A stretch of DNA of 64,000 nucleotides from Squalus acanthias (Eukaryota). Each line of letters begins with the position of its first letter. The first letter of the stretch is position 1. The notes under the pieces are model-generated. The model was not told where the DNA came from. It worked only from the letters and a program-made list of their open reading frames with translations, and searched no databases. A program made the translations under genes and the position numbers. Positions 1 through 64,000 of the stretch are shown piece by piece. The stretch lies in contig CM059431.1 in assembly GCA_030390025.1 (NCBI GenBank), forward strand, positions 155,250,001 to 155,314,000. The letters are read 5' to 3'.

Positions 1-1825
1 GCAGGAGTAGGCCATCCGGCCCTTCGAGCCTGCTCCGCCATTTAATGAGATCATGGCTGATCCTTCAATTCAGTATCCCGTCCCCGCCTTCTCTCCGTAA
101 CCCTTAACCCCTTTTGCCTGTAGAAATATATCTAATTCCCTCTTAAATATATTTAATGAGCTGGCGTACACTGCCCTCTGTGGCAATGAGTTCCACAGGT
201 TCACCACTCTCTGAGTGAAGAAATTCCCCCTCATTTCTGTCCTAAATGGTTTAGCCCTTATCCTTAAATTATGTCCTCTAGTTCTGTTCTCACCCGCCAA
301 GGGAAACATTCCTTCTGCATCTAATCTGTCTAGACCTGTCAGAATTTTATACACTTCTATGAGGTCCCCTCTCAATCTTCTAAACTCCAGTGTGTACATC
401 CCTAAACTACATAGTCTCTCCTCATAGGTCAATCCCGCCATTCCTGGTATCAGCCTGGTGAATCGCCGCTGCACCCCCTCCATGGCAAGAACATCTTTCC
501 TCAGATGAGGCGACCAAAACTGTACACAGTACTCGAGGTGTGGTCTCACCAGTGCCCTGTACAGCTGCAGCAAGGTATCCCTGTTCCTGTATTCCAACCC
601 TTTTGCTATGAAGGCCAGCATACCGTTTGCCTTCTTGACCGCCTGTTGCACCTGCATGCTCGCCTTCAGTGACTGGTGTACAAGAACACCCAGGTCTCTC
701 TGTACTTCCCCCTCTCCCAATTTATTGCCATTTAAATAATAATTTGCCCTCCCGTTCCTGCACCCAAGGTGGATAACTTCGCACTTGTCCACATTATAGT
801 GCATCTGCCATTTATCCGCCCAATCACCCAGTCTGTCCAAATCGCTCTGGAGCTTCCTGGTCTCCTCCTCTGAGCCCACCCCCCCTCCTAGTTTAGTGTC
901 GTCTGCAAATTTGGAAATGCTGCATTCGACTCCCTGATCCAGGTCATTAATATAAATTGTGAACAGCTGGGGACCCAGGACAGATCCCTGTGGTACCCCA
1001 CTTGTTACTGCCTGCCATTCAGAAAATGAGCCGTTTATTCCAACTCTCTGTTTTCTATCTGACAGCCAGTTCTCTATCCACGTCAATACTTTCCCCTTTA
1101 TCCCATGAGCTTCAATTTTCCATGCTAATCTTTTATGTGGGACCTTATCGAAGGCCTTTTGGAAGTCCAGGTACACCACATCTACTGGCTCTCCCCCATC
1201 TATTTTACCAGTTACTCCCTCAAAAAATTCCAATAGATTAGTCAAGCACGATTTACCCTTTGTAAATCCATGTTGACTCTGTCCTATCCTGTCCCCATTT
1301 GCTAAGTGCTCGGCTATTTCATCCTTAATGATGGACTCCAGCATTTTGCCCACAACTGATGTAAGGCTTACAGGTCTGTAATTACCTGCTTTTTCCCTAC
1401 CCCCCTTTTTGAATAGTGGGGTAACGTTAGCTACCCTCCAATCCATGGGCACTGTTCCCGAGTCTAATGAATTCTGAAAAATCATGCTTAGTGCATCCGC
1501 TATCTCTAGGGCCACCTCCTTCAGTACCCTAGGATGCATGTTATCAGGCCCTGGGGATTTGTCCGCCTTCAATCCCTTTAGCTTCCTTAACACCATATCC
1601 TTAGAGATATTGATTTGCGTCAGTTCCTCCTTTGCCAATGTCCCTATTTTTCCCGATATCCCAGGGAGGTTTTTTGTGTCTTCCTTCGTAAAGACTGACC
1701 CAAAGTATGCATTTAGTTGGTCTGCCATTTCCTTATTTCCCATTATATATTCCCCCGTATCTGACTGCAATGGACCAACTTTGGTTTTCACCAGTCTTTT
1801 CCTCTTGATATACTTATAAAAGCTT
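1..1825 (-). mobile_element. CR1 LINE, 5'-truncated, uninterrupted RT-domain reading frame
   Basis: ORF 70..~1825 with KSPGPD, YRPVSLTS, YLDFQKAFDKVPH, GVPQGSVLGP and FADD motifs; CR1 3' UTR at 1-69. Confidence 0.97.
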
Positions 1826-3229
1826 ATAAAATCATCTTGGCAGATCGGACGCTTGCCCCAGAGAAGGGCCTCTGCGGCTGGAGATTTCCGCTGCAGGACA
1901 ACCGCTCTTGAAAACACTTAAAAATCGTACTCCTGGTAAAAGCAGGCGTAAGGCCTGCTTTCCCCAGCACAAGAATTTAAAAAAGTAAAAAATTATATAT
2001 TTTTTCACTCACTTATAATTTTAATGTACTTCTAAATAAGGTATGTTTAATTTTAGCTCCGTAAAAATCTCTAATTATTTTTTTCAAAACATTACATTTT
2101 TGTTTAAAATATTTCAATTAATATAAATGTTACTCATTTTATAAACGCGATGCTTTTTAAAAAATATATTTATTTTTTTGATTTGTTTTTGGGGTGATCT
2201 CCAATCATACCTTTGACAGGGCTATCTGTCAAAGGTATGAAGGGAGATTCCCTTCTATTCTCTCGCCTGTCCACCTCCCTCAGGGGCTCACGAGCTTCGC
2301 AAGCGTCCCTGGGATCAGGTGGTCACTGCGTATTTCTACTGTGGACAGGCCCAGGATCGGAAATGGCTCCTCCTCGGGAGCCCTCAGGTAAGGGCGTAGA
2401 TTTATTCCCGATAGGAGTCATCCGCACGCAGGAAGACTCCTAACGGAAATTACGGGCCAAATATTGCAATGAATATTTGAATAAGATACCACTAGCAGCA
2501 CAAGCATCACGCGTCCTCAGCAAAGACACAATGGATATCCTGGAGCTAGATAGAACATCTAATAGCCACATATATCTAATCTCAGGAAAATAAATTAACT
2601 GACATATTTAAAATAAGCTGTCGCACACGGCCGAGAAATTCTGTCCGTTCTTTAGCAAAGCAGACGTGCATTTTAATTAAACGAGACGATTAGTGTGAGT
2701 CACTGCCGGTGGCACCAATTTCTAGAACTTTCTACTGAACATATCCAAGTCGTTGCTTCCATTTCTTTTCTCCTTTCAACTTCACTGCATGGCTGATTCT
2801 ACCAGCCTATCTACCAACTTCCCTGCCACAGTTATTACTTATAATTTACAACCTCAAAAAATCTGCATTACTCTACGTCTCACCAAGCACTCGCAAAATT
2901 CATCCAGTCCTTGGGTTACGCAACTTTAAGCCTTCACGTTCATTCTTCTGCCCAATGCTCAGGGACATAACATTACCGGCATCTTCTGTCATGACAGCCA
3001 TCATGTCCTATTTAAAATAAAATTCCGAGTCTCATCCATGATGTCTATCTGATCTCTTTTCGAATATTTCCTGAGGTTATGTAACACATATATTAATAAT
3101 GCATGGTGAATAAAGCTGATTAGTTGAAGGTAGCGATTGTCTGATGATGCTATCGGAAGTTATGATATGAAGACATTAACACCTACGTGGTTAATGCAAG
3201 CGCACGGCTGGGAGCTTGGCATTAATATT

Positions 3230-3768
3230 GGTCCCGATATTCCGATCCTTACGGATGTTCACGCGCTGTGTACACAACCGTAGGGACATCGGAAATGCCG
3301 GTTTTAGGCATGCCAAGCGCATGCGCTGAAATCCGTATTTTCCAATCTGTCAAGAATGCACTTGACAGATTGGACGCCGAGCCTGGAGAAGGTCCTCTGC
3401 GGACGGATAGTTCCGCTTTCTGGTGAACCCCCAGGCGGCAGAAAACCCTTAGAAATCGTATGCCTGCTAAAAGCAGGGCTAAGGCTTGCTTTTACTATGT
3501 TTTGGGGGTAAATTCCATTCATAGATTTGACAGGTCTTCCTGTCAAAGGTATGAAGGGAGATTCCCTTCTCTGATTGGCTCCCTACGTGATCCCAGGGAC
3601 GCTACGAACCGCCTGCGCCTCTGGGATACGTCTGCCCTGCGCACCGGCAGTTTGGAGAAACCAAGCAACGGAACTCAGCGTCTCCCGGGAGCCCTCCGGT
3701 CCAGGCACAGATTTTTCCAGATCGCAGTCCTCCGCCCGAGGGCGGCCTGCGAAAGGAATTTCTGGGCC
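3230..3768. mobile_element. MITE family A2, related to A1 (other copies 15254-15791, 28127-28650, 35049-35586, 45718-46183), each followed by a further partial copy
   Basis: att|ggtcccgatattcc ... ggaatttctgggcc|att: TIR-like ends with a 3-bp ATT duplication in this copy; internal sequence homologous to A1. Confidence 0.65.
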
Positions 3769-3867
3769 ATTATGTTTTTGGTGTGATCCCCATTCATATA
3801 TTTGACAAAAATGAGAAGTCGCACAACACCAGGTTATAGTCCAACAGATGTATTTAAAATTACAAAC

Positions 3868-3893
3868 TTTCGGAGCTGTCGCCCCTTCGTCAG
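3868..3893 (-). ncRNA. Hammerhead ribozyme core motif, second copy
   Basis: Reverse complement reads CTGACGA-A-GGGGC-GACA-GCTCC-GAAA; stem II is 5 bp with one G-U pair. Confidence 0.55.
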
Positions 3894-4686
3894 GTAAAGT
3901 TACTGTGAGAGAATCTATCAGAATTCACAGAATTTAAACACAGAGAAAATGCATAGATTAAATCTTTCCCTACATCAAAGAGACACTAAGAGCACAGCCA
4001 AGACAATGAGATGTGTCCCATGGGGTCCAACGCGTCAGACCACCTGCTGGGGGCATATCCTCTCCATTTTTTGTGTTTGCTTCTTGCGTTTGCTTTTTTT
4101 TTAAACTTGAAAGACCGGCAATGATGTCAATTCACGTTCTATAGCGTGACATGAACCCGATATCCCGATTGAGGCCGTCCTCATGAGTGCAGAACTTGGC
4201 TATCAGTTTCTGCTCGATGATTTTGCGTTGTCTTGTATCCCGAAGGCCGCCTTGGAGAACACTAACACGCAGATCCGAGGCAGTCAAGGGCATTCAGCCT
4301 CGGATCTGCGGGTTAGCGTTCTCCAAGGCGGCCTTCGGGATATACGACAATGCAAAATGATCGAGCAGAAACTGATAGCCGAGTTACGCACTCATGAGGA
4401 CGGCCTCAATCAGGTTATCGGGTTCATGTCACACTATAGAACGTGACTTGACATCGTTGCCGGTCTTTCCAGTTTTTAAAAAAAAAACAAACACAAGAAA
4501 CATACACAAAAAATGGAGAGGATATGCAGCCAGCAGGTATTCTGACGCGTTGGACCCCCTGGGACACATCTCATTGTCTTGGCTGTGCTCTTAGTGTGTC
4601 GTTGATGTAGGGAAGGATTTAATCTATGCATTTTCTCTGTGTTCATATTCTGTGAATTCTGATAGATTCTCTCACAGTAACTTTAC

Positions 4687-4712
4687 CTGACGAAGGGGTG
4701 ACAGCTCCGAAA
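4687..4712 (+). ncRNA. Hammerhead ribozyme core motif (minimal, Penelope-associated type)
   Basis: CTGACGA-A-GGGGT-GACA-GCTCC-GAAA matches CUGANGA / stem II / GAAA; stems I and III not verified. Confidence 0.55.
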
Positions 4713-6159
4713 GCTTGTAATTTTAAATAAATCTGTTGGACTATAACCTGGTGTTTTGCGACTTCTCATTTTTGTCCACCCCAGTCCAACGCCGGCATCT
4801 CCGCATCATGACCACTATATTTGACAGGTATTCCTGTCAAGTGTATGAATGCAGTTTCCCTACTTTGCTTGGCTCCCCATGGCCCACATGATCCCAGGCA
4901 CCCTGTAATCTGCCTGTGCCTCTGGGATAATAGGGCACTGCGCAAGTGGAGATTGGAGAGGCCCAGGATCGGAATCGTATGCGTCCCGGGATCCCTAACG
5001 TAAGGGCGTAGATTTTTCCAGATTGCAGACCTGCGCACTCGGGATTCCTGCGATCGAAAAAACTGGCCATTAACTATGAGGAGTTCATTATGATGCACAA
5101 GTGGTGGGTAACGAATTGAGGTAGTGAAATATTGAAAACATTGAAAAAATTTAGCGAAGGTATCAGAGATATGGGTGACTTTAAATATCTGAAGTATAGA
5201 AGTGATGTTCCGGTGGAAGAGGGAGTGTGCTGTCTGCCAGTATCCAGGACGTGAGATAGATGGGTAAGTTTCCAGAACAACAGGGAAGGAATGAGTATTG
5301 GATCCATTTCTGCAAACGGATGACGGATATCTAAGAAGTAATGATATCATTAGAATTCAGAAGAACAGTAAATCAAAGCAATATATATGTACAGGATAAC
5401 CAATTTCAACAAATCAAGAACACACTAGCCCAGATATATTGGGACGGAATGGATCAGATAATTCCGTCGGGAAACAATACGGAGGTACCAAGTAGGAAAT
5501 GATTGCGATACGATTTATAGGAATTACACGATAATAAAACGGGTGGAGCACATACAAGAATTACTTGGAAGTGCATAGAAAAGGAAATTAAAAGTAGATT
5601 TACAAATTGAATGTAGGGGGTTGATTATATAAATCAAATCAAAGAAACATAGAGGTTAACGAGCAGAAGGTAAAACGTTGTCAGTTTAAGAATTTGGTGA
5701 TTGGCAGGTGACAGAATTAGGGACAATGATCACATTTCATAAAAACTTCAGATAAAATAGTTACTCATAAGACAGGACTGTTCAAGTATTCAAAGCAAAT
5801 GGTTCATATAGAAGATGAAGGATTGACTGATAAGCTTGTGCTACTGTTTAGATGAATGATACTTGAAATGAACGGAAGTCTAATTGCAATCCATAATAAA
5901 GAAATACGGACGCGTGTAATACGAGCCGCCCATTCGCTATCAGCACCTGTCATGCGACTGGCCGATTCCAATTTCACCCGCATTGTTTTACAATCTGTGC
6001 AGTTTGAGTTTCTAAAAGCACGTTGTGAGCATTCCAGAACATTGCTGTTACTAACAACAAATAATGCTTCATTTTGCACGAAACATATTCCTGAAATCTG
6101 GCTTTTCCCCTTTTATTTGGCACTTAACATTTTTTCATATCAGTTTTGAAAATTCAGCT

Positions 6160-6422
6160 TCCCTCGGTGACTCAACGCTGCTCCTCTCTATCTCTGCAAC
6201 ATCCTCCAGCCCTACAATCCTCCGTGATCTCTGTGCTCATCAAATTCTGAACCATTGCGCAACCCCGATTCTCTTCACGCCACCATTGGCAGCCGTGGGT
6301 GGTGCTGCCTCGGTCCTAAACTCTGGAATTAACTCTGTAATCCTCTCCGGCCGTCTGCCATTCTCTGCTCTTTAGAAACGCTCCTTATAACTTATCTCCT
6401 TGACATAGATTTTGGTCACCTG
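6160..6422 (+). mobile_element. Old L2 LINE 3' fragment (present in all units, ~110 bp upstream of exon B)
   Basis: Similar to the L2 3' ends at 62445-62820 and 52650-52965 (ctccagccctacaa...ctctggaatt...ttttggtcacctg). Confidence 0.65.
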
Positions 6423-6534
6423 ATTGTGAGCTTTTCTATTAATTTCTCCCATAAAGAGAGGGAGAAAGAAAACCGACGTTTCTTAGCTGATTTTGTTAAA
6501 TACTTTGTTCAATATGATTGCAATATTTTTTTAG

Positions 6535-6733
6535 GAAATCAGTACACTTGCTGAAAGTCAGCGCAGAAACGATGCTTCCCAACGCATTTTCGATACCGTG
6601 TTGGAAAAGGGAGCTCGGGGAGAAAGAACAATGTGGAACATATTTCTTCAACTGCAGAATACAAAATCGAAACTGAAAGCGACATTGTCACAGATACAGA
6701 AGACAGGTACATGGACAAAACATGATCTAGAAG
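6535..6733 (+). CDS. Exon B, unit 1 (C-terminal half of CARD-like domain)
   Basis: Acceptor tttttttAG|GAAATC; EISTLAESQRRNDASQRIFDTVLEKGARGERTMWNIFLQLQNTKSKLKATLSQIQKT(GTWTKHDLE). The donor used by the other copies is GG here (6734-6735); a same-phase donor CAG|GTACAT follows 6706. Confidence 0.75.
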
Positions 6734-9700
6734 GGAGGCGATGTCAAAATCTAATTGCAAAAGATCTCATTTACTTTCAGAGTAAGAGAGTTCATTATTT
6801 ATGTCGAGGAACTTATTTTAAGTTAATGTCCAGGAGAATGAAATTCTAATTGTCGCGGACACACAATGGCCGGTAACATTTGCCGACAGTTACACACACG
6901 CCCGATATTCAGCTCAATTCAAGTTTATTCGCTCGCAACATATAATAGGCGATGGATGCGATACGGTCTGTGTTTTGTCCTCGCTGAAAAACGGCCGGTA
7001 CTGCATCTGCTGCCCGTTGTTCGCTCGGTCCTATGTTCCCTTGCTTTGACTCCAATAAAATTGCAGAGGCTGCGCTGTGCCCACCCAGAGCCGGTAATCA
7101 GGGAAATCTCTCAAATCAGGGAAACTGATGTAATCTTCGGCTCTTTCACGGTAATTGCGCTCTTGAATTCCCCAATAAAAGTTTGACTGACAGGTAAGGG
7201 TGTAACTGGATTGCAACACCGTATTGAATTCTAAACAAATGTGAAGCGCAGATAATCTAATTCACATTTTGTGCAGAAACAACTTTATTCATTTGAATAA
7301 AAATTTGCATTATTCTGAAAATGTAATTATTTTAAAGGATTTTTCCTCCTTATTTCTGCTTTGCATTTTCCCCATGTTAGAGCCCCAATATTTGTTTCGT
7401 TCGCTCAATCATTTTTTCCAAATGTTAGAAGTTTAACAGCTTATTCACTTCCTTGTTCGCTGTCTGTGAGAATTCTGCGTTTTGGTTGGTTGCTTAGACA
7501 GCCTGTTGACTTCACAGCAGCTTGCACTCGGGATTCCCAATGATGCTCCGTTGATTTGAATTACACTTCGGAAAACCTGATTGGGAGATATTTGTGTCAC
7601 GCATACTTTGTGGCCGCAGCAAATGCCTTTGCTTCGCGCTGACCGCTAATTCCGGGCCGTTCTTTATTTAGTATCTCTCAGGCCTTTCTACTTCCATCGA
7701 TAGGCATTTTAGAATCCGGTACAATCAATTATGATTCCTACCAGCGATTGTCATGTTTCAGATGTGGTATTTGAGATTTAGTTATTATTTCAATTTGATA
7801 TCAATAACTTTTTCCCAATGTTGTGTTCTTGTAATTGTTGTATTGATATCTATCAAATTTATTTTGAGTACATTTAGATTCACAGTATTTAAATTTCTCC
7901 AGTCCGTATCGCAGTTTAGTTTTCCCAAGAAAGAAGGAATGAGCTTGCATTTACTGTTAATTTCTTTAACTATCTGTGCATTATTTATAAGCTCTTTAGG
8001 CTAACAAGCGACAGTCACGACTATTTCTAATTGCTCAGCAGCATCTGGTGATTCCAAGCAATAAATTTCGAATGGATTCTCAGATCACCGTTCGCAACCA
8101 TCATATTTTAATTTTCTGGATATATGATAACATATGAATATATGCTCGTGATTTAGATCCGCTTTTGTGAGGTTTAGACTCGATTCCTTAAACGACTTTT
8201 GGGCACTGCCAGATAGAATCCCCAGAGCTCGACTGCTTCAATTCATCAGTTCACCCTCATTTCCACTTATCCATAATCCCATTTGTCGGTGACCTACATT
8301 GACTTGTTATCACAGACAATTTGTGAAAGACTCCTATTCATCTACAATTCCCTTTACGGTCTCGAGCGTCTTAATTTTACAGTCTTCTTCAGAAACCCTC
8401 TTTTATTTCTGGTCCATCCTCTCCCTTTGCTGTTTTCCCCAGATTATTGGTTCCTCTGCTCCGGACTCCAACAAAGTCGTTAGCACCAATGTCTGGAATC
8501 CGTTGCCTTGGGCTTCCACTCTTTACTTCCTACTTACTTTAAACAACCTCCACATGTTGCAAGTACTAGGTCGTTTCTCTTAACTCTACGAAAAAGAGAC
8601 AGCTTTAACTCTAAATTCCTGCTCTGTGAGGCGCCATTGCCCGTCTCACTGTTTGAAAGGCTCTAAAGAAAAGCTGCTGCTCTAAAAGTTAGTTCAAAGT
8701 ATTTATTGCTTCAAAGCAAACATAGTATTGTAACCTGTTCTCATTCACACTTTTACAGAACATTCAGATAGTATATTTTTACTAATGTTGGCGAGCTACA
8801 CGGATATCCAGCTTGGAAGAATTATCGGCTGCTACCGTCAGAGACTAGAATCGTCAATTGAAGAATTCGTGGAAGCTGTTAGTCAATCGCTCTTAGATGC
8901 AAACGTGTTTACTGAAACAATTCATAAGGTATGCTACATATATGTTGCAATTTTCGAAATGGCCTCCTAAATTTGAGACGGTTTGGTGGGCGATTGTTCA
9001 AGTCGGTCTGGAACGTCATGGTTTGCTGGTTTAAAGGTTGTATTCTCTGGCGACATTATGTTCGCGGCGGAGGTGTGGTGGTGCGAGGACTTGAAAGCCA
9101 TGGGGTGAATGATAACAACCTTCCCACGGCCCACCCTTTTACGTGCTCTTAGATTACAGCTAATATCGTCTAAAAGGAAACAGAACTTGTCGTTTTTAAT
9201 GCGTTAAATAATAAGAGAACAGCATCTCATGTTATTACCATAAGTTCATCGTGGAAGAATCCTCGACCCAAATATCGTCAGCTGCATCATCAATTAATTT
9301 TTTTCTGTCATACGGTCAGAATTTGAGCTGTACACTGATGATTGCAGTGTTTAATTCCATTCCCAATAACTCAGGTAACTAAACAGTCCATGTCCGTATG
9401 CAACTAGATCTGGTCAACATGCCAGTTTTGGTTGATAATTGCAAGTAACATTTGTGCCACATAAGTGACAGGCAAAAACCATCTGCAGAAAGAGACTCTC
9501 TAATCAACTGATAATTCACTAGAAAACGTCTTGCAGTTAAGCTATTTACCTTGGCCGTATTTCTGCAGGGATTCGGGTTACTGCTGTTTCTGTAATCGGA
9601 CATAAATGGCATCCTATCCAAGGAGCAATTAATCCAAATTTCAGTATTGCAAGTAACACGCCAAGACACAATGGCTCGTATTTTCCGATGCCTACGTGTG

Positions 9701-12700
9701 AGTACGCGCTGTGTACACACCCGCAGGGACATCGGTAATGCCGCATTCAGGCATGCGAAGCGCATGCGCCGAAAACCGGCATTACCGATCTGTCAAGTGT
9801 TGGCGGACCTGGCTGGATCGACAGCAGCGAGGCGGCGGCTTTAAAAGAGGCGGCGACCAGGTAGGCCCACAGAGGCGGCGGACCTGGGTGGAGCGACATC
9901 CGCGAGACGGCGGCTGTAAAAGAGGCGGCGACCAGGTAGACCCACAGAGGCGGCGGACCTGGGTGGAGCGACAGCGGCGAGGCGGCGGCTGTAAAAGAGG
10001 TGGCGACCAGGTAGGCCCAGAGAGGCAGCGGACCTGGGTGGAGCGACAGCGGCGAGGCGGCGGCTGTCAAAGAGGCGGCGACCAGGTAGGCATACCAATC
10101 TGAGCCCCGAGAGCGGGAGAGAGAGAAGTAGAAAATAATCAAAGTGTGATGTCACCAGAAAGCAGGTAAGTGATTGGTGGGTGAGTATTTCTCTTTTTCT
10201 CCTTCTTTCCATGCTTAAATTCTGTGGTTAATATTTTCTAGAGTCTCTGTAGTGTAGCGGGGACTGCTGTTAAGCAAGGGCCCTTCAGTATATCATTTAA
10301 TTGAAGTGAAATTAGTGGGATTCAATTAGTTTAATCTTAATTAATTATTTAAAGGGTAAGTCATGGCAGCAGATCTCGGCGCCGTGATATGCTCCTCCTG
10401 CGATGTGTGGGAAATCAGGGACACTTCCTGTGTCCCTGACGACCATGTGTGTGGGAAATGTATCCAGCTGCAGCTACTGACGGACCGCATTGCGGCGCTG
10501 GAGCTGCGGATGGATGCATATTGGAGCATTCACGATGATGAGAACGTCGTGAATAACACGTTTAGCGAGTTGGTCGCACCGCAGGTAAAGGGTGCACAGA
10601 CAGGAAGTGAATGGGTGACCACCAGGCAGAGTAAGAGGTGCAGGCAAGTAGTGCAGGGGTCCCCTGTGGCCATTCCCCCTCTCAAACAGGTATACAACTT
10701 TGGATGCTGTTGGGGGGGATGACTTATCAGGGGAAGGCGGCAGCAGCCAACTTCCTGGCAGCATGGGTGGCTCTGCTGCACAGGCTGGGATGAAAAAGTG
10801 TGGAAGAGCTATAGTGATAGGGGATTCAATTTTAAGCGGAATAGATCGGCCTTTCTGCGGACGCGATCGAAACTCTGGGATGTTGTGTAGCCTCCCTGGT
10901 GCAAGGGTAAGGACGTCTCGGAGCGTCTACAGAACATTTTGGAGGTGGAGGGTGAGCAGCCAGTTGTCGTGGTGCACATAGCCATCAACGATATAGGTAA
11001 AAAACGGGATGAGGTCCTAAAAGCAGAATATAGGGAGTTAGGAGGTAAATTAAAAAAGTGGACCTCAAAGATAGTAATCTCAGGATTGCTACCAGTGCCA
11101 CGTGCTTGTCAGAGTAGTAATAGGAGGATATTTCAAATGAATACGTGGCTAGAGAAATGGATGGTGCAAGGGGGTGGGATTCAAATTCCTTGGACATTAT
11201 AACCAGTTCGGGGGGAGGTGGGACCAGTACAAACGTGACGGTCTGAACCTGGGCAGGGCCAGGACCGATGTCCTAGGGGGAGTGTTTGCTAGTGCTGTTG
11301 GGGAGGGTTTAAACTAAAGTGGCAGTGGGTTGGGAACCTGAGCAGGGAGACAGAGGAAAGGGAAACAAGGATAAAAGCTAAAGACAGGAAGGAGAAAAAC
11401 AAAAGTAGAAGGCAAAGAACTCAAAGGCTAACATATACGGTCTGATGAAAGGGAGGAACTGAAAGAAAGCAGTATTTGCAGGGAAATGGTGTTAGGGAAA
11501 TTGACGGGATTGAAGGCCGATAAATCCCCAGGGCCTGATAATCTACATCCTAGGGTACTTAAGGAAGTGGCCCGAGAAATAGTAGATGCATTGCTGATCA
11601 TCTTCCAACATTCGATGGAATCTGGAACTGTTCCTATGGATTGGAGGGTAGCCAATGTTACCCCACTGTTCAAAAAGGGTGGCAGAGAGAAAGCGGGGTA
11701 TTACAGACCGGTATGCCTGACATCGGTATTGGGGAAAATCCTAGAGTCCATTATAAAGGATGTAATAGCTGAGCACTTGAAAAACAGTGACAGGATCGGA
11801 CAAAGTCAACATGGATTTACAAAAGGTAAATCGTGCTTGTCTAATCTACTGGAATTTTTGGAGGATGTAACTGGGAAAATAGATAAGGGAGAACCAGTAG
11901 ATGTGGTGTATTTGGACTTTCAAAAGGCTTTCAATAAGGTCCCGCATAAGAGATTAGAGTGTAAAGTTAAGGCACATGGGATTGGGGGCAAGGTATTGAC
12001 TTGGATAGAGGACTGGTTGGCGGACAGAAAGCAGAGAGTAGGAATTAATGGGTCTTTTTCCGAGTGGCAAGCAGTGACTAGTGGGGTACCACAGGGATCG
12101 GTCCTTGGATCCCAGCTATTCACAATATATATTAATGATCTAGATAAGGGAACTAAATGTAATATCTCCAAGTTTGCAGATGACACAAAGCTGGGTGGGA
12201 GAGTGTGCTGCGAGGAGGATACCGAGAAACTCCAGGATCATTTGGACAGGTTGGGTGAGTGGGCAGAAGCGCGGCAGATGCAAAATAACGTGGATAATTG
12301 CGAGGTTATCCACTTTGGTGTCAAAAACAGAAAGGCAGACTATTATCTGAATGGCAATAGATTGGGAGAAGGGGAAGTGCAATGAGACCTAGGTGACCTT
12401 GTGCACCAGTCGCTGAAAGTAAGCATGCTGGTGCAGCAGGCGGTGAAGAAGGCAAATGGTATGTTGACCTTCATAGCGAAAGGGTTTGAGTATAGGAACA
12501 GGGATGTCCTGCTGCAGTTGTACAGGGCCTTGGTGAGACCACACCTTGACTTATGTGTGCGGTTTAGTTCGCCTTATCTGAGGAAGGATGTTCTTGAAAT
12601 GGAAGGAGTTCAGCGAAGATTCAGAAGGCTGATACCTGGGATGGCAGGAATGACATATGAGGAGAGATTGGGTCGATTGGGCTTATACTCGCTGGAGTAT

Positions 12701-39700: not shown

Positions 39701-42700
39701 AACAAAGTCGTCAGCACCACTGGTTGGAATCCGTTGCCTTGGGCTTCCACTCTTTACTTCCTACTTACTTTAAACAACCTCCACATGTTGCAAGATCTAG
39801 GTCGTTTCTCTTAACTCTACGAAAAAGAGGCAGCTTAAACTCTAAATTCCTGCTCTGAGAGGCGCCATTGGCCGTCTCACTGTTTGAAAGGCTCTAAAGA
39901 AAAGCTGCTGCTCTAAATGTAAGTTCAAATTATTCATTGCTTCAAAGCAGACATAGAATTTTAACCTGTTCTCATTTACACTTTTACAGAAAATTCAGAT
40001 ACTAAAATGTTACTAATGTTGGCGAGATACACGGATATCCAGCTTGGAAGAATTATCGGCTGCTACCGTCAGAGACTAGAATCGTCAATTGAAGAATTCG
40101 TGGAAGCTGTTAGTCAATTGCTCTTAGATGCAAACGTGTTTACTGAAACAATTCATAAGGTATGCTACATATATGTTGGAATTTTCTAAATGGCCTCATA
40201 AATTTGAGACGGGATGATGGGAGATTGTTCATAGAAACGTAGAAACATCGAAAATAGGTGCAGGAGTAGACCATTCGGTCCTTCGAGCCTGCACCGCCAT
40301 TTAATGCGTTCATGGCTGAACATGCTACCTCAGTACCCCATACCTGCTTTCTCGCCTTACCCCTTGATCCCCCTAATTGTGAGTATTATATCTAACTCCC
40401 TTTTGAATATATTTAGCGAACTGCACTCAACAACTTTCTGTGGTAGAGAATTCCACAGATTCACCTCTCTCTGGCTGAAGAAGTTGCTCCTCATCTCAGT
40501 CTTAAATGGCTTCCCCTTTATCCTTAGACTGTGATCCCTGCTTTTAGTTTTCCCTAACATTGGAAACATTCTGCCCGCATCTAATTTGTCTAACCCAGTC
40601 AGGATTTTAAACGTCTCTATAAGATCCCCCCTCATTCTTCTGAATTCCAGAGGATACAAGTTCAGTTGATCCAGTCTTTCTTGATATGTCAGTCTGGCCA
40701 TCCCAGGAATCAATCTAGTGAACCTTCGTTGCACTCCCTCAATAGCAAGAATGTCCTTCCTCAAGTTAGGAGACCAAAACTGCTCACAATACTCCAGGTG
40801 TGGCCTCACCAAGGCCCTGTACAACTGTAGCATCACCTCCCTACTCCTGTACTCAAATCCCCTTGCTATGAAGGCCATCATGCCATTTGCTTTCTTGACT
40901 GCCTGCTGCACTTGCCTTCCCACCTTCAGTGACTGATGTACCATGACGCCCAGGTCTCGTTGCACCTCCCCTTTCCCTAATCTGCCACCATTCAGGTATT
41001 GGTCTGCCTCCCTATTTTTACCACCAAAGTGGATAACCTCACATTTATCCACATTGTACTTCATCTGCCATACATTTGCCCATTCACCCAACCTGTCCAA
41101 GTCACTCTGTAGCATCCTAGCATCCTCCTCATTGTTCACACTGGCTCCCAATTTAGTGTCATCCGCAAATTTGGAGATATTACAATTAATCCCTTCTTCC
41201 AAATCATTAATATATAATGTAAACAGCTGGGGCCCCAGCACCAAACCCTGCGGTAACCCACTGGTCACTGCCTGCAATTCTTAAAAGTGCCAATTTACTC
41301 CTACTCTTTGTTTCCTGTGTGCCAACCAGTTCTCAATCCACGTCAACACATTACCCCCAATCCCATGTGCTTTAACTTTGCACACCAATCTCTTGTGTGG
41401 GACCTTGTCGAAGGCCTTCTGAAAGTCCAAATACACCACATCTACTGGTTTCCCCCCCGTCCACCCTATTGGAAACATCCTCACAAAATACCAGAAGATT
41501 TGTCAAGCATGATTTCCCTTTCACAAATCCATGCTGACTTGGACCTATAATGTCGCCACTTTCCAAATGGTCTGTTATGACATCTTTAACAATTGATTCC
41601 ATCATTTTACCCACCACCGATGTCAGGTTGACCGGTCTATAATTCCCTGCTTTCTCACTGCCTCCTTTTTTAAAAAGAGGGGTTACATTAGCCACCCCCC
41701 ACTCCTTCGGAACTGATCCAGAGTCTAAGGAATGTTGGAAAATGATCGTCAATGCATCCACTATTTCCAAGGCCACCTCCTTAAGTACTCTGGGATGCAG
41801 ACCATCAGGCCCTGGGGATTTATCAGCCTTCAGTCCCATCAATTTCCCCAACATCTTTTCCCGACTGATAAGGATTTCCCTCAGCTCCTCCCTCTTATCA
41901 GATCCTTTGATCTCTTTTATTTCCGGAAGGTTGTTTGTGTCCTCCACAGTAAACACCGAACGAAAGTACTTGTTCAATTGATCCGCCATTTCTTTGTTCC
42001 CCATTATGAATTCCCCTGTATCTGACTGCAGGGGACCTACGTTTGTTTTTACTAACCTCTTTCTTATTACATATTTATAGAAGCTTTTGCAGTCTGTTTT
42101 AATGTTCTCCGCAAGCTTCCTTTCATATTTTATTTTCCATGCCCAAATCAAACCCTTCATCCTCCTCTGCTGAGTTTTAAAGTTCTCCCAGTCCCCGGGT
42201 TTGCTGCTACTTCTGGCCAATTTGTATGCCACTTCCTTGCTTTTAATACTATCCCTGATTTCCCTTGTTAGCCATGGTTGAGCCACATTCCCTTTTTTAT
42301 TTTTACGCCAGACAGGGATGTACAATTGCTGTAGTTCATCCATGCGATCTCTAAATGTCCACCATTGCCCTTCCACTGATAACCCCTTAAATATCGCTTG
42401 CCAATCTAACCTCGCCAATTCACGCCTCATACCCTCAAAGTTGCCCTTATTTAAGTTCTGCACCATGTTCTCTGAATTAACTGTTTCCTTCTCCATCCTA
42501 ATGTAGAACTACACCTTACTATGGTCACTCTTCCCCAAGGGGCCTCGCACCACAAGATTGCTGATTAGTCCTTCCTCATTACACACCACCCAGTCCAGGA
42601 TGGCCTCCCCTCTAGTTGGTTCCTCAACATATTGGTTTAGGAAACCATCCCTTAACCACTCCAGGAAATCCTCCTCCACCGTATTGCTTCCTGTTTGAGT

Positions 42701-45700
42701 AGCCCAATCTATATGCATATTAAAGTCACCCATGATAACTGCTGCGCCTTTTTTGCATGCACCTCTGATTTCCTGTTTCTTACCGTCCCCCACCTCACTA
42801 CTACTGTTTGGAGGTCTGTACACAACTTCCACTAACGTTTTCTGCCCTTTGGTGTGCTGCAGCTCTACCCATATAGATTCCACATCCTCCAAGCTAATGT
42901 CCTTCCTAGCTAATGCATTAATCTCCTTTTTAACCAGCAATGTTACCCCACCAACTTTTCCTTTTATTCTATCCTTCCCGAATGTTGAATACCGCTGGAT
43001 ATTCAGTTCCCAGCCTTGATTGTTCTGGAGCCACGTCTCTGTAATCCCAATCACATCATATCCGTTAACATCAATTTGCACAGTCAATTCATCCACCTTA
43101 TTACGGATACTACTTGCATTAAGACACAGAGCCTATAGGTTTGTTTTATTAACACCCTTTGTCCTTTTAGACTTATGATTTAGTATGGCCCTTTGTGTTT
43201 CTTGCCTTTGTTTACTCGGATTTCCCTTATTGTTTCACACCTGTCTAACATTTGTTTCTGACTGCATATTGCTTCCCCTTGTTTCGCTACATAGGTTCCC
43301 ATTCCCCTGCCATATTAGTTTAAATCCTCCCGAACTGCCTTAGAAATTATTACCCCGAGGACATCGGTTCCAGTCCTGCCCAAGTGCACACCGTCCCTTT
43401 TGTATAGGTCCCACTTCCCACAGAACTGGTTCCAATGCCTCAGGTATTTGAATCCCTCCCTCCTGCACCACTGCTCAAGCCACGTATTTAATCTCGCTAT
43501 CCTGTTCATGCTACTCTGATTAGCACGTGACACTGGTAGCAAGTCGGTCTGGAACGGCATGGCTTTGCTGGTTTAAAGGTTGTATTCTCTGGTGACTTTA
43601 TGTTCGCGGCACAGGTGTGGTGGTGCGAGGACTTGATAGCCATGGGTTGAATGATAACAGCCTTCTCACGGCCGACCCTTTTACGTGCTCTTAGATTACA
43701 GCTAATATCGTCTCAAAGGAAACAGAACTTGAGGTTTTTAATGCGTTAAATAATAAGTGAACAGCATCTCATGTGATAACCATGAGTTAATCGTGGATGA
43801 ATCCCCGACCCAAATATCGTCAGCTGCATCATCAATTCATTTTTTTCTTTCATACGGTCAGAATTTGGGCTTTACTCTGATGATTGCAGTGTTCAATTCC
43901 ATTCCCAATTCCTCAGGTAACTAAACAGTCCATGCCCGTATGCAACAAGATCTGGTCAACATGCCAGTTTTGATGGATAATTAGCAAGTAACATTTGTGC
44001 CGCATAAGTGACATGCAAAAACCATCTGCAGAAAGAGACTCTCTGATCTACTGATAATTCACTGGAAAAGGTCTTGCAGTTAAGCTATTTACCTTGGTCG
44101 TATTTCTGCATGGATTCGGGTTACTGTTGTTTCTGTAATCGGACATAAATGGCATCCTATTCAAGGAGCAATTAATCCAAATTTCAGGATTGCAAGGAAC
44201 ACGCCAAGACACAATGGCTCGTATTTTCCGATGCCTACGTGTGAGTACGCGCTGTGTGCACACCCGTAGGGATATAGGTAATGCCGGTTTCAGGCATGCG
44301 CTAAAACCGGCATTACCGATCTGTCACGAATCATCTTGACAGATCGGACGCTTGCCCCAGAGAAGGGCCTCGTCGGGTGGAGATTTCCGCTTGCTGTAGG
44401 ACATCCGCTCTTGAAAACACTTAAAAATCGTACTCCTGGTAAAAGCAGGCGTAAGGCCTGCTTTTCACAGCACAAGAGTTTAAAAAAGTTAAAAAATACA
44501 TATTTTTTCGCACATTTATAATTTTAAAGTACTTCTAAATAAGGTAAGTTTAATTTTAGCTCCGTAAAAATCTTTAATTATTTTTTTCAAAACATTAATT
44601 TTTTGTTTAAAATATTTAAATTAATATAAATGTTACTCATTTTAAAAACGCGATGCTTTTGAAAAATGTATTTATTACTTTGATTTGTTTTTGGGTTGAT
44701 CGCCATTCATACCTTTGACAGTTCTATCAGTCAAAGGTATGAAGGGAGATTCCCTTCTATTCTCTCGCCTGTCCACCTATCTCTGGGGCTCATGAGCTTC
44801 GCAAGCGTCCCTGGGATCAGGTGGGCCCTGCGCATTTCTACTGTGGACAGGCCCAGGATCGGAAATGGCTCCTCCTCGGGAGCCCTCAGGTAAGGGCGTA
44901 GATTTATTCCCGACAGGAGGCAACCGCACGCAGTAAGCCTCCTAACGGAAATTACGGGCCAAATATTGTAATGAATATTTGAATAAGATACCACTAGCAG
45001 CACAAGCATCACGCGTCCTCAGCAAGGTCCCAATGGATATCCTGGAGCTAGATAGAACATCTAATAGCCACATATATCGAATCTCAGGAAAATAAATTAA
45101 CTGACATATTTAAAATAAGCTGTCGCTCACGGCCGAGAAATTCTGTCCGTTCTTTAGCAAAGCAGACGAGCATTTTAATTAAACGAGACGATTCGTGTGA
45201 GTCACTGCCCGTGGCACCAATTTCTAGAACTTTCTACAAAACATATTCAAGTCGTTGCTTCCATTTCTTTTCTCCTTCCAACTTCACTGCATGGCTGATT
45301 CTACCTGCCTATCCACCAACTTCCCTGCCACAGTTATTATTTATAATTAACAACCTCAAAAAATCTGCATTATTCTACGTCCCACCAAGCACTCGCAAAA
45401 TTCATATAGTCCATGGGTTACGCAACTTTAAGCCTTCACGTTCATTCTTCTGCCCAATGCTCAGGGACATCAACATTACCGGCATCTCCTGTCATGACAG
45501 CCATCATGTCCTATTTAAAATAAAATTCCGAGTCGCATCCTTGATATCTATATGATATATTTTCGAATATTTCCTGAAGTTATATAACACATATATTAAT
45601 AAAGCATGGTGAATAAAGCTGATTAGTTGAAGGTAGCGATTGTCTGATGATGCTCTAGGAAGTTATGATATGAAGACATGGTTAATGTAAGCGCACGTCT

Positions 45701-48700
45701 GGGAGCTTTGCGTTAATGGGCCGGATATTCCGATCCTTACGGGTGTGTACGCGCTGTGTACACAACCGTAGGGACATCGGAAATGCCGGTTTCAGGCATG
45801 CCAAGCGCATGCGCTGAAATCCGTAATTTCCGATCTGTCAAGAATGCTCTTGACAGATTGGACGCCTAGCCTGGAGAAGGTCCTCTGCGGAAGGACAGTT
45901 CCGCTTTCTGGAGAACCCCCGCCTGCAGAAAACCATTATAAATCGTATGTCTGCTATAAGCAGGGCTAAGGCTTGCTTTTCTTATGTTTTGGGGGTGATT
46001 TCCATTCATATATTGGACAGGACTTCCTGTCAAATGTATGAAGGGTGATTCCCTTCTCTGATTGGCTCCCTACGTGATCCCAGGGACGCTGCGAACTGCC
46101 TGCGCCTCTGGGATACGTGGGCCCTGCGATTCCAGATCGCAGTCCTCCGCCCGCGGATGGCCTGCGAAACGAATTCCTGGGCCAATATCTTTTTGGGGTG
46201 ATCTCCATTCATATATTTGACAGGTCTTCCTGTCAAATGTATGAATGCAGTTTCCCTACTTTGATTGGATCCCCATAGCCCACATGATCCCATGCACCCT
46301 GTAATCTGCCTGTGCCATTGGGATAATAGGGACCTGCGCAATTGGAGATTGGAGAGGACCAGGATCGGAATCGTGTGCGTACCGGGATCCCGAAGGTAAG
46401 GGCGTAGATTTTTCCAGATTGCAGAGCTGCGCACCCGGGATTCCTGCGATCGAAAAAACTGGCCATTAACTATGAGGAGTTCATTATCATGCACAAGTGG
46501 TGGGTCACGAATTGAGGATGCGATATATTGAAACAATGGAGACATTTTAGCGAGTGTATCAGAGATATGGATGACTTTAAATATCTAAAGTATAGAATTG
46601 ATCTACGGGTGAAGAGGGAATGTGCTATCTGCCACGTATCCAGGACGTGAGATAGATGGATACGTTTCCAGATCAACAGGGAAGGAATGAGTATTGGATC
46701 CATTTCTGCAAACGGATAACGGATATCTAAGAAGCAATGATATCATTAGAATTCAGAAGAACAGTAAATCAACGCAATATATTTGTACAGGATAACCAAT
46801 TTCCACAAATCAAGAACACACTAGCCCAGATATATTGGGACGGAATAGAGCAGATAATTCCTTCGGGAAGCAATACGAAGATACCAAGTAGGAAATGATT
46901 GCGATACCATCTATAGGAATTACACGACAATAAAAGGAGTGGTGCACATACAAGAATTATTTGGATGTGCATAGAAAAGGAATTTAAAAGTAAATTTACA
47001 ACTTGAATGTAGGGGGTTGATTATATAAATCAAATCAAAGAAACATAGAGGTTAACAAGCAGAAAGTAAAACGTTGACAGTTTAATAATTTGGTGATTGG
47101 CATGAGACAGTATTCGGGAAATGATCACATTTCATAAAAACTTCGAATAAAATAGTTTCTCATAAGACAGGACTATTCAGGTATTCAAAGCAAATGGTTC
47201 ATATAGAAGATGAAGGTTTGACTGATAAGCTTGTGCTACTGTTTAGATAAATGATACTTGAAATGAACGGAAATCTAATTGCAATCCATGGTAAAGAAAT
47301 ACGGACGCGTGTAACACGAGCCGCCCATTCGCTATCAGCACCTGTCATGCGACTGGCCGATTCCAATTTCACCCGCATTGTTTTGCAATCTGTGCAGTTT
47401 GAGTTTCTAAAAGCACTTTGTGAGCTTTCCAGAACATTGCTACTACTAACAACAAATAATGCTGCATTTTGTACGAACCATATTCCTGAAATCTGACTTT
47501 TCCCCTTTTATTTGGCACTGAACAATTTTTCATATCATTTGATAAAATTCAGCTTTCCTCGGTTACTCAACGCTGCTCCTCTCTATCTCTGCAACATCCT
47601 CCAGCCCTACAATCCTCCGTGATCTCTGTGCTCATCAAATTCTGAACCATTGCGCAACCCCGATTCTCTTTACGCCACTATTGGTAGCCGTGCGTTGTGC
47701 TGCCTCGGTCCAAAGCTCTGGAATTAACTCTGTAATCCTCCCCGGCCGTCTGCCATTCTCTTCTCTTTAGAAACGCTCCTTATAACTTATGGCAATGATA
47801 TAGATTTTGGTCAACTGTTTGTGAGCTTTTCTATTCATTCCTCCCATAAAGAGAGGGAGAAACAAAACCGACGTTTCTTAGCTGATTTTGTAAAATACTT
47901 TGTTCAATATGATTGCAATATGTTTTTAGGAAATCAGTACACTTGCTGAAAGTACGCGCATAAACAATGCATCCCAACGCATTTTCGATATCTTGCTGGA
48001 AAAGGGAGCTCGGGGAGAAAGAACAATGCGGAACATATTTCTTCAACTGCAGAATACAAAACCCAAACTGAAAGCGACATTGTCAGAGATAAAGAACAGA
48101 GATACAGGGACAAAACATGATCTAGAAGGTAGGCGATGTCAAAATCTAATTGCAAAAGATCGTGTTTACTTTCAGAGTAAGAGAGTTCATTGTTTATGTC
48201 GAGGAACTTATTTTAAGTTGATGTCCAGGAGGATGAAATTCTAATTTTCGGGATCACATTTGCCGACAGTTACACACACGCCCCATATTCAGCTCAATTC
48301 AAGTTTATTCGCGCGGAACATATAATAGGCGATGGATGCGATACGGCCTGTGTTCTGTCCTCGCCGAAAAACGGCCGGTATTGCATTTGCTGCACGTTGT
48401 TCGCTCGGTCCTATGTTCCCTTCCTTTGACTCCAATAAAATTGCAGAGGCTGCGCTGTGCCCACCCAGAGCCGGTAATCAGGGAAATCTCTCAAATCAGG
48501 GAAACTGATGTAATCTTCGGCTCTTTCACGGTAATTGCGCTCTTGAATTCCCCACTAAAAGTTTGACTGAAAGGGAAGGGTGCAACTGGATTGCAACAGC
48601 GTATTGAATTCTAAACAGATGTGATGGCCAGAAAATCTAATTTTAATTTAGTGCAGAGGCAACTTTATTCATTTAAATAAAAATTAACATTATTCTGAAA

Positions 48701-51700
48701 ATGTAATTATTTTAAAAGATTTTTCCTCCTTATTTCTGCTTTGCATTTTCCCCCTGTTAGAGCCCCAATATTTGTTTCGTTCGCTGAATCATTTTTTTTT
48801 TAAATTAGAAGTTTAACAGCGTATTCACTTCTTTGTTCGCTGTCTGTGAGAATTCTGCGTTTTGGTTGGATGCTTAGACAGCCTGTTGACTTCACAGCAG
48901 CTTGCACTCGGGATTCCCAATGATGCTCCGTTTATTTGAATTACACTTCGGAAAACCTGATTGCGAGATCTTTGTTTCAAGCTTACTTTGTGGCCGCAGC
49001 AAATGCCTTTGCTTCGCGCTGACCGCTAATTCCGGCCCGTTCTTTATTTAGTATCTCTGAGGTTTTTCTACTTCCATCGATAGGCATTTTAGAATCAGGT
49101 ACATTCAATTATGATTCCTAACAGCTATTGTCATGATTCAGATGTGGTATTTGAGATTTAGTCATTATTTCAATTTGCTATCAATAACTTTTTCCCAATC
49201 GTGTGTTCTTGTAATTGTTGTATTGATATCTATCAAATTTATTTTGAGTACATTTAGATTCACAGTATTTCAATTTCTCCGGTCCGTATCGCAGTTTAGT
49301 TTTCCCAAGATAGAAGGAATGAGCTTGCATTTACTGTTACTTTCTTTAACTATCTGCGCATTATTTATTAACTCTTTAGGCTAACAAGCGACAGTTACGA
49401 GTCTTTCTAATTGCTCAGCAGCATCTGGTGATTCCAAGCAATAAATTTCGAATGGATTCTCAGATCACCGTCCGCAATGATCATATTTTAAATTTCTGGA
49501 TATATGATAACATATGAATATTTGCTCGTGATTTAGATGCGCTTTTGTGAGGTTTAGACTCGATTCCTCAAACGACTTTTGGGCACTGCCAGAGCTCGAC
49601 TGCTTCAATTCATCAGTTCACCCTCATTTCCACTTATCCATAATCCCATTCGTCGGTGACCGACATTCACTTGCTGTCCCAGACAATTTGTGAAAGACTC
49701 CTACTCATCTACAATTCACTTTACAGTCTCGAGCGTCTTAATTTTACAGTCTTCTTCAAAAACCCACTTTTATTTCTGATCCATCCTCTCCCTTTGCTGT
49801 GGTTCCCAGATTATTGGTTCCTCTGCTCCGGACTCCAACAAAGTAGTTAGCACCACTGTCTGGAATCCGTTGCCTTGGGCTTCCACTCTTTACTTCCTAC
49901 TTACTGCTATTCTTCGAAACATTACATGCTTTTATTCTCAAGTTGACACCATCCTTTACTTTCTTACATATTCACGGATGGTTCATCTTTCTCTTAGAAT
50001 CTTTTTTTCTCTGAGTGTTATGAAACAACAGCAGCTTTTCGAATTGTTTGAGACTATTTGGACTGTCAATGAATACTTGAAAATCAAATCTCAAACATAT
50101 TCTATAATTTACAGAGATTGACGATACTACAATAATGGACGAACAAGGCAAGATAATCGTCACGTTTGCAGTCTTAGTTGCAATACTGCTGGGAACCGCA
50201 GGAGTTCTGGTGACGTGTTGTTGGCAAAACCGGAAAAATCGCGGTAAGATTACACCGCCGGCAGTAAAGATGCAGGAAATACAAATAGTGAAATAATCAG
50301 TTGCATTTTTGGTGGAGAAAAAGAAATACACTACACACTTTGTTATTCTCTCCCTAAATTATCCACCTCTACGTCCCCTGGTAATCATTAAACTTATGCT
50401 CAAAAACCTACTTTTTTGACTGCACTTCATCTACATCTTCTTGAACCCTTATTATAATTTTCGTTGTCCCGGATGTGTGCGTTCTTGCATCAGTAAAACT
50501 TCCTTTATGTGCCTTGGAATATTTATTTTCCTCGTTAAAGACACCGTACAAATGCAAGTTGTTGATGATGAGGTTTTGTCTTTATTAATAGAGATACCTC
50601 TCACGCCTTTCTCCGACCCGACTCCCGCAAATCCCTCTGAGTTTTATAGTGATGTACGTTCAGTTCTTTAATTATACCAGCTACGGTCATGTGTCGGCTA
50701 AATTATTGATGACTGCGTGATTATTTTCTATTCATATCGCAAACTTTTTTCCCAAAATTATTTCCTTATTACTCGGTGCAATAATATCCACAAAAATTAG
50801 TGTGATTGCAATTGAGTTCACAATATTTCTATTTCACTTGTTAACCCGATCACCGTTTCCTTTCGCTGTTCAATGGTATGTCTTGTACTTTTGAGCACCC
50901 GCTTGATATTGGAGTTAAGGACAATAAATGAATGTAACATTCATCAATCGATGGATTTCGAGTCGGACGCCCCCGTAAACTGCCAACGCCGCATCCCTGC
51001 CAATAAAAGGAAGAGAACTCTTTTATTATCTGCTAAATTAATTTCAGGTAAATCACAGAAGGATGCCGGTTAAGTTAGCCACGTGAACACGGTGGCATAG
51101 TGGTTAGCACTGGTGCCTCACAGCGCCAGGGACCCGGGTTCGAATCTGACCTCGGGTGACTGTCTGTGTGGAGTTTGCACATTCTCCCCGTGTCTGCGTG
51201 GGTTTCCTCCGGGTGCTCCGGTTTCCTCCCACAGTCAAAAATGTGCGAGTTAGGTTGATTTGGCTATGATAAATTGACCCTTAGTGTTAGGGGGGGATTA
51301 AATATGTGGGGTTATGGGGATAGGATGGGATATGCCAGGGGTAATTAAATACGTGGGGTTACGGGGGTAGGGTGGGATATGTTTACTGTGGGGATTAAAG
51401 CAGGGATAGGGTATTGGATTTGGATGATCAGCCATGATCGTATTCAATGGTGGAGCAGGCTCGACGGGTCGAATGGCCTACTCCTGCTCCTTGTTTCTAT
51501 GTCAAGAGGAAGTATCTTTGTCGGTGGGGGGAATAGAGGGAATAACGAAATACATGTGAGCCATAAGGAGTTAGTAAAGCATGGGGAGGCAGAATTAACA
51601 AAAAAATGAAATAGGCAGATGCCCGGATGAAGTAGAGAACGATGCGAGTAAAGTATGGAGTGCGAAATGTGAATTACAGACGATTACATCGGAGATACCT

Positions 51701-52293: not shown

Positions 52294-52435
52294 CACACGG
52301 ACAATGCCACAGCCCATAGAGAGCAGAGAGATCACATCTAGAAATATATTGTGTGTGGATAGATATCATAGTCCTAAACTACCAGAATTTAATATCAAAA
52401 TTCAGCACATCCAAAATATTAAACAAAAATCGGTG

Positions 52436-52441
52436 AATAAA
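52436..52441 (+). promoter_or_regulatory. Candidate polyadenylation signal AATAAA (also ATTAAA at 52418-52423)
   Basis: About 140 nt downstream of the candidate stop. Such hexamers are common by chance in AT-rich DNA. Confidence 0.3.
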
Positions 52442-63975: not shown

Positions 63976-64000
63976 TTTATATATTTTTTAACAAGGCAAC

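Follow-up and report, generated by a model that had tools for sequence, protein, structure and literature searches.

A tandem array of two-exon domain cassettes in Squalus acanthias and its reading as a candidate membrane-tethered poly-CARD gene

A window of 64,000 nucleotides from Squalus acanthias (GCA_030390025.1, contig CM059431.1, positions 155,250,001 to 155,314,000 of the forward strand) contains five direct tandem units (1830-49905) of a two-exon cassette, followed by an exon that encodes a transmembrane (TM) helix. The domain encoded by each cassette is very probably a divergent CARD of the death fold, and our best overall explanation, with a probability of roughly 0.55, is that the window holds the 3' part, on the + strand, of a gene for a membrane-tethered poly-CARD protein. 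The alternatives concern different steps of this explanation and are not mutually exclusive. An earlier note on this DNA, made from its letters alone, had proposed that a domain was multiplied by tandem duplication of a phase-symmetric cassette, and had named self-comparison as a way to check it.

That comparison recovered five direct repeat units. Self-BLAST, mapping on unit 4 and alignment of the units agree in placing 8538, 20411, 32392, 39769 and 49905, the boundaries given in the earlier note, at homologous points of the units, and the abrupt loss of similarity at 49905 marks the 3' breakpoint of the array. Pairwise block identity among units is 88-97% over a shared core of 6.8-7.0 kb. 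The unit size of ~6.9 kb proposed at first describes this core without private insertions (Table 1) and not the full units, which measure 7.4-12 kb (11873, 11981, 7377 and 10136 bp for units 2 to 5). Likewise, one exon A and one exon B per unit is correct for four of the five units, but unit 1 as originally drawn (1826-8538) has B1 only, and the window as a whole holds five B exons and four A exons. The first ~1.26 kb of unit 1, including the position expected for its exon A, is cut off by a CR1 element filling 1-1824, and 1826 proved to be the edge of this element rather than the start of the array; the A exon of the first unit would lie to the left of the window, where the array may extend beyond five units. 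Every unit carries its own private insertions (0.4-4.4 kb), and the five units are therefore distinct copies and not an assembly echo. An assembly artefact was ruled out by these insertions, one of which has a 12-bp target duplication, together with exons that are intact amid 3% divergence. Other long frames within the units, among them one on the minus strand that ends at 32391, matched no homologue and are not considered further.

Exon A (170 nt) runs from phase 1 to phase 0 and exon B (199 nt) from phase 0 to phase 1, giving 369 nt or 123 codons together, with phase-1 introns on either side of the cassette and a phase-0 intron within it. The cassette is phase-symmetric, gain or loss of a unit is neutral for the reading frame because whole codons lie between two phase-1 introns, and domain number grew by tandem duplication of this cassette, all as the earlier note had it. 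Phase-symmetric internal duplication is itself described as well known (PMC3632108). The splice dinucleotides of the nine exons are canonical with two exceptions among 18 (GG at the B1 donor, TG at the A3 acceptor), both of which have in-frame substitutes, a GT 27 nt upstream of the B1 donor and an AG 9 nt downstream of the A3 acceptor. The upstream donor of B1 (after 6706) has gained two matches to the U1 consensus (7 of 9, versus 4-5 in the other copies). B1 is the only copy without the usual donor and the only one with an improved upstream donor, a coincidence noticed post hoc that is apparently a sign of compensation. Exon B offers two possible in-frame donor sites separated by 27 nt (6704-6712 and 6731-6739 in B1). 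Both survive in B3 and B4, the upstream site alone in B1 and the downstream site alone in B2 and B5; no copy has lost both, and the length of the linker could differ by 9 residues between copies.

The nine exons contain no stops and no indels, which nine neutral exons would achieve with a probability of 0.003 (simulation) or 0.009 (conservative inputs), and when joined to the TM exon using the two substitute splice sites they form a spliced chain of 589 codons without a stop. Compared with their consensus they carry 33 nonsynonymous and 4 synonymous changes (omega ~2.3, not significantly above 1, p=0.11); positive selection is not claimed. The nonsynonymous count equals that expected at the intron rate (33 observed, ~33 expected), so the amino acids are not conserved, and this fits relaxed selection too. 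A young or relaxed pseudogene, whose exons drift neutrally and are intact by luck, would explain that rate, the two broken splice dinucleotides and the loss in B5 of a Trp (to Arg) at a column invariant in the five homologues described below, all of which count against a functional gene. It is nevertheless quite unlikely given the absence of stops and indels and the in-frame substitutes for both broken splice sites, one of them apparently improved. The intact exons point rather to a translated gene, which we consider probable, in which selection would have kept frame and splicing and not the exact amino acids, the copies diversifying meanwhile. B5, with 9 nonsynonymous changes, is the most diverged CARD half, and the membrane-proximal domain to which it belongs may be degenerate or specialised.

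A search with exon A among 1.84 billion protein representatives matched seven proteins, five of which are shark or ray gene models with tandem A+B domains, from Scyliorhinus (P0001), Mustelus (P0002), Cetorhinus (P0003), Hypanus and Hemitrygon; P0004 and P0005 were dropped as low-complexity repeats. Exons A and B both match the homologues in A-B order (28-60% identity), and both match the three domains that precede the NACHT of P0002, showing that the domain is common to members of the NLR family. The name of the domain and the TM exon after the last unit are additions to the earlier description. The Pfam CARD profile (PF00619) is exceeded by one of the five homologues (P0006, 30.3 versus a cut-off of 23.9 bits) and narrowly missed by two (22.9 and 23.4), and matches to CARD clusters in an atlas scored 0.81-0.87, which we treat as leads only. 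AlphaFold models of P0003 and P0001 contain compact helical domains (blocks with a predicted local distance difference test of 61-91) and low-confidence linkers between them. The best structural match of the P0003 model is the CARD of SP100 (Z 12.1, root-mean-square deviation 1.8, 96 aligned residues) and that of the P0001 model is the CARD of ARC (Z 12.6, 1.3, 80 residues). In one structural comparison 32 of the 34 top rows were CARDs or CARD-bearing proteins, with the first death domain at Z 8.0, and death, pyrin and DED domains score Z 8.7 or lower against the two models. These predictions suggest a CARD with two extra N-terminal helices, of which the copies in the homologues would fold separately like beads on a string; a six-helix death fold closest to CARDs is seen in the models of P0003 and P0001, and from these we infer it for the window.

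Several points tell against this identification. Neither P0001 nor P0002 has a Pfam CARD match, and none of four half-domain exons of the window matches Pfam CARD or reaches the cut-off of any Pfam family. Foldseek ranks CARDs first, none of them at E <= 0.001, and a sequence profile search of solved structures returned no CARD, its best match (E 0.021) being an annexin. The structural comparison tool warns that Z values under ~13 for helical bundles may reflect a mere common arrangement, the models were built from 5 and 9 sequences, and the fold was predicted on homologues at ~35-57% identity and not on the window's own domain. Word-based homologue searches were nearly blind to this family: exon B found nothing, P0003 found itself only, and the alignment found its own two members only. 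A divergent CARD is still, on the modelled folds, the identity that we hold with high confidence.

The TM exon begins 1986 bp after B5, in the slot of a next exon A (B-A introns are ~2020 bp), and has an acidic N-flank, a Cys-Cys pair and a basic C-flank. Among the 2648 open frames of the window, its frame is the best match to the TM region of P0002 and the second best to the one in P0003, and neither alignment was matched by any of 2000 shuffles. P0003 consists of two CARDs, a TM helix and a short tail, with no NACHT and with the same CARD-to-TM spacing as in the window, and the CARD-TM layout thus already exists as an unannotated gene model. The order of P0002 is the reverse (TM, three CARDs, NACHT, LRR), so the same modules occur in either order within the family. 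These comparisons make it fairly probable that the array splices to the TM exon at the predicted junction. The order in P0002 also weighs on the other side, since the TM exon might not be the tail of this protein but start a downstream TM-CARD-NACHT module or gene, or be skipped, with the array forming the N-terminus of an NLR whose NACHT lies beyond the window. Such an arrangement would suit the in-frame ATG inside the TM exon (at 50135), its phase-1 end, which could splice to another exon A, and the terminal exon that we propose by inspection, which has no homologue support and is outscored on pyrimidines by 4 other downstream acceptor-like sites. Yet the intact phase-1 acceptor lies at nearly the distance of a B-A intron, and the CARD-to-TM spacing in P0003 is the same. 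The stretch 50244-64000 showed no similarity to A, B or NACHT, and with P0002 as query there was no NACHT similarity in the 64-kb window, of which 13.8 kb lie downstream of the TM exon. We regard this arrangement as unlikely, though less so than the other alternatives.

The intron end and the start of the TM exon (49906-50243) faintly resemble those of exon A (32393-32782), with 11 of 1000 shuffles scoring as high; the two exons may be anciently related, and the register of duplication may have been fixed by that residual homology. P0002, an automatic model from Mustelus asterias, has an N-terminal hydrophobic stretch and a TM before its three CARDs and NACHT-LRR, the layout of a membrane-anchored NLR in a jawed vertebrate.

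If the array is tethered through this helix, the side of the membrane on which the CARDs lie has to be weighed as well. We place them in the cytosol, but the charges around the TM helix (-3 before, +3 after) fit CARDs outside the cell better than inside, as does the hydrophobic stretch with which P0003 starts (residues 4-14, hydropathy 2.18); the charge pattern is compatible with either topology. A type I topology, in which the CARDs would lie outside the cell or in an organelle lumen and act as a multivalent ligand or adhesion surface, would account for the acidic and basic flanks and the juxtamembrane Cys-Cys. It would also agree with P0002, where the NACHT that comes after the related TM requires its C-side to face the cytosol, and the caspase-1 CARD of a cartilaginous fish is reported to bind lipopolysaccharide (LPS) directly (10.64898/2026.07.03.736391). 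However, the N-terminus of P0003 was predicted automatically, and the 5' end of the gene studied here lies beyond the window. Death folds are cytosolic in the known cases, and a basic C-flank is likewise typical of mitochondrial tail anchors, that of MAVS among them. CARDs outside the cell thus appear improbable to us. Most speculative of all, and very improbable, is a shark family of single-pass membrane proteins with five or more diversifying CARDs outside or in the lumen, derived from exon modules of TM-anchored NLRs, in which the death fold would serve as a multivalent receptor outside the cell, with LPS as one possible ligand, and the nonsynonymous excess would reflect ligand-driven diversification.

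The units are related by a star tree. In the four blocks present in all five units, private changes far outnumber shared ones; in the three long blocks each unit has 23-56 private changes per block, against at most 7 common to any pair. The longest identical run between units is 131 bp, and none of 326 exact matches of at least 40 bp reaches 134 bp, where independent mutation alone predicts a longest run with a median of 130-151 bp. The star tree and the shortness of this run indicate that the units arose close in time, and no sign of recent homogenisation is visible. Across the family, domain number is clearly labile (two in P0003, three that are 97-99% identical in P0002, about 3.5 in P0001).

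The earlier note had gone further and compared the locus to LPA, suggesting that unit number may vary between haplotypes by unequal crossover and tune valency. Kringle IV (KIV) of LPA is similar in being a frame-preserving, multi-kb unit with two exons per domain in tandem (5.5 kb; 160 + 182 bp; PMC4378929), but its domain is unrelated and KIV-2 is reported to range from 1 to >40 copies among people (PMC4378929). Consistent with such variation are the frame-safe cassette, the differing domain numbers in the family and the near-identical domains of P0002, which indicate that recent duplications do occur in it. KIV-2 units are moreover described as more diverse than once thought (10.1101/2022.06.08.495395). 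Efficient nonallelic homologous recombination (NAHR) in mammals is stated to need 300-500 bp of near identity, usually at >95% overall (PMC2583991), well above the 131 bp seen here, although NAHR has been reported between elements chosen at 94% identity or more, at ~94% without a perfect match of 300-500 bp (PMC4195946). Both thresholds come from mammals, which limits their force for a shark, and rare crossovers between units are possible. Ongoing crossover should nevertheless give near-identical neighbours or shared insertions, and none was seen in this haplotype. Homogenised units or recent sister copies like those of KIV-2 were not found among the five units (88-97% identity, star tree, private insertions in every unit), which are closer to the fixed and diverged, single-copy KIV-1 and KIV-3 to -10. 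From these patterns the array is likely to be old and largely fixed, and variation among living haplotypes is improbable.

Sequencing runs compared with 30300-33000 add nothing on this point. Seven of 10 rows contain part of the region, none as much as half (best share 0.42), and no RNA run is listed among them; the other units alone supply 1211 of its 2671 31-mers (0.45), so that the read share is uninformative on copy number. Unit divergence (~6%) would be comparable to the synonymous divergence between whale and zebra sharks, given as 0.06-0.11 over ~50 million years (PMC13100897), if mutation here proceeds at the genome-average rate, an assumption made uncertain by the odd mutation spectrum of the region. 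Dating by the epaulette-shark rate of 7e-10 per generation (PMC10587355) would put the age at tens of millions of generations. This seems too old, and we give only the comparison with whale and zebra sharks.

We propose that a single brief round of duplication multiplied the cassette, its breakpoints lying ~210-220 bp upstream of both exon A and the TM exon. The units would then have diverged separately and acquired private transposons, which would largely have put an end to efficient unequal crossover. The product would be a membrane-tethered poly-CARD protein without NACHT and with cytosolic CARDs. CARDs signal by homotypic stacking and polymerisation, and the chain might bind with high avidity to similar CARDs in members of the expanded shark NLR family or in their effectors. 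It would act either as a platform that seeds partner CARDs, in the manner of MAVS or CARD19, or as a decoy that soaks them up, in the manner of CARD-only proteins; a cytosolic scaffold or decoy of this kind is a tentative suggestion, drawn by analogy.

The closest candidate relative is the Cetorhinus maximus model LOC144671995 (XP_078390056.1, the P0003 above; an automatic gene model), which has tandem A+B CARD-like domains (33-56% identity to the window exons) and a related TM helix followed by a short tail, with no NACHT. Its two domains are only 37% alike, whereas the window has at least five at 80-96% per exon. The Mustelus asterias model (XP_078087540.1, the P0002 above), named 'NLRP3-like', likewise carries tandem copies of the domain (44-56% identity) together with a related TM helix, but its TM precedes the CARDs and NACHT and LRR follow them, in contrast to the window with no NACHT similarity. 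The elasmobranch NLR models probably belong to the NLRP-related expansion described for sharks in PMC8455134. MAVS and CARD19/BinCARD, both among the fold matches, resemble the proposed protein in having a CARD N-terminal to a single C-terminal TM and a short tail, as reported for CARD19 (PMC8997538) and for tail-anchored MAVS (PMC11348129), but with one CARD each. This is a likeness of layout and not of membership. No MAVS or CARD19 sequence matched in the homologue and solved-structure searches, which are weak for distant CARDs, and the whale shark is reported to have a MAVS of its own (PMC8455134). The CARD-only proteins COP, INCA and ICEBERG share with it a CARD lacking sensor or enzyme, duplicated from a signalling family, and the decoy model, but they are single, soluble CARDs derived from caspase-1 and not a multi-CARD chain with a TM exon.

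What is unusual about this locus is its cargo. CARDs usually occur singly or in pairs, and at least five on one membrane-anchored chain would, if true, amount to a ready-made nucleation platform or high-avidity sink. Recognisable CARD-bearing NLRs and ASC are reported to be absent from one cartilaginous fish (10.64898/2026.07.03.736391), and shark inflammasomes are argued not to be orthologous to the human ones (PMC8455134); divergent CARDs under the Pfam threshold may be an overlooked part of the shark inflammasome circuit. The locus also separates two claims, that domain number is labile across the family and that this array looks old and largely fixed. In the literature searched no poly-CARD or CARD-TM gene was described in sharks; Supplementary file 12 of PMC8455134, which lists NLRs, may be relevant here.

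Table 1. Coordinates of the array units, the cassette and downstream exons, and the flanking element in the window.
Feature	Position	Strand	Remarks
Unit 1, partial	1830..8538	+	5705 bp of core in window; one private insertion, 3808-4815 (1008 bp)
Unit 2	8539..20411	+	core 6927 bp; insertions 9798-13101, 13356-14128, 19012-19880
Unit 3	20412..32392	+	core 7009 bp; insertions 21644-22258 and CR1 23068-27424 (4357 bp)
Unit 4	32393..39769	+	core 6943 bp; SINE-like insertion 36825-37258 (434 bp)
Unit 5	39770..49905	+	core 6828 bp; CR1 40232-43539 (3308 bp)
Exon B1	6535..6733	+	C-terminal half of CARD (probable); usual donor broken (GG); in-frame donor after 6706
Exon A2	8759..8928	+	170 nt, phase 1 to 0; N-terminal half of CARD (probable)
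Exon B2	17538..17736	+	199 nt, phase 0 to 1
Exon A3	20631..20800	+	usual acceptor broken (TG); first downstream AG gives in-frame start at 20640
Exon B3	30390..30588	+	199 nt
Exon A4	32613..32782	+	170 nt; query of the profile-library search
Exon B4	37771..37969	+	199 nt
Exon A5	39990..40159	+	170 nt
Exon B5	47930..48128	+	most diverged exon, 10 changes from consensus
Transmembrane exon	50115..50243	+	129 nt, phase 1 to 1, AG/GT intact; hydropathy 2.71
Speculative terminal exon	52223..52293	+	23 codons to stop; AATAAA at 52436; by inspection
CR1-type LINE	1..1824	-	reverse-transcriptase frame 70-1917; inserted in unit 1

The long interspersed element (LINE) at 1-1824 is one that we take to be a CR1 from the sequence of its open reading frame and not from a library search. 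It and a second CR1 copy (~80% alike, on opposite strands) inserted within a few bases of the same point, at 1824-1830 in unit 1 and 9797-13102 in unit 2 (corresponding to ~33654 in unit 4), and both insertion points fall in the loop of one short palindrome, which may be a hotspot for insertion. The CR1 copies at 9798-13101 and 23068-27424 belong to one family and are 92-94% alike, an age like that of the units; the copy in unit 3 looks near full length, and that in unit 2 is internally deleted and bears a 75-bp tandem repeat at the 5' end. The insertion at 3808-4815, which carries the 12-bp target duplication, consists almost wholly of a 965-bp inverted repeat that is 92% self-complementary, and it may be a head-to-head Penelope-type fragment. 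The copies at 36825-37258 (in unit 4) and 51131-51502 that resemble a short interspersed element (SINE) are 96% identical, and no insertion younger than the former was seen in the array. Transversions are abundant among the differences between units (transition/transversion ratio ~0.6), without a CpG excess, and the core has a CpG observed/expected ratio of 0.81. The CR1 pair inside the array shows the same transversion-rich spectrum (0.58-0.82), for which low methylation in the germline or a mutation process particular to the region might be responsible.

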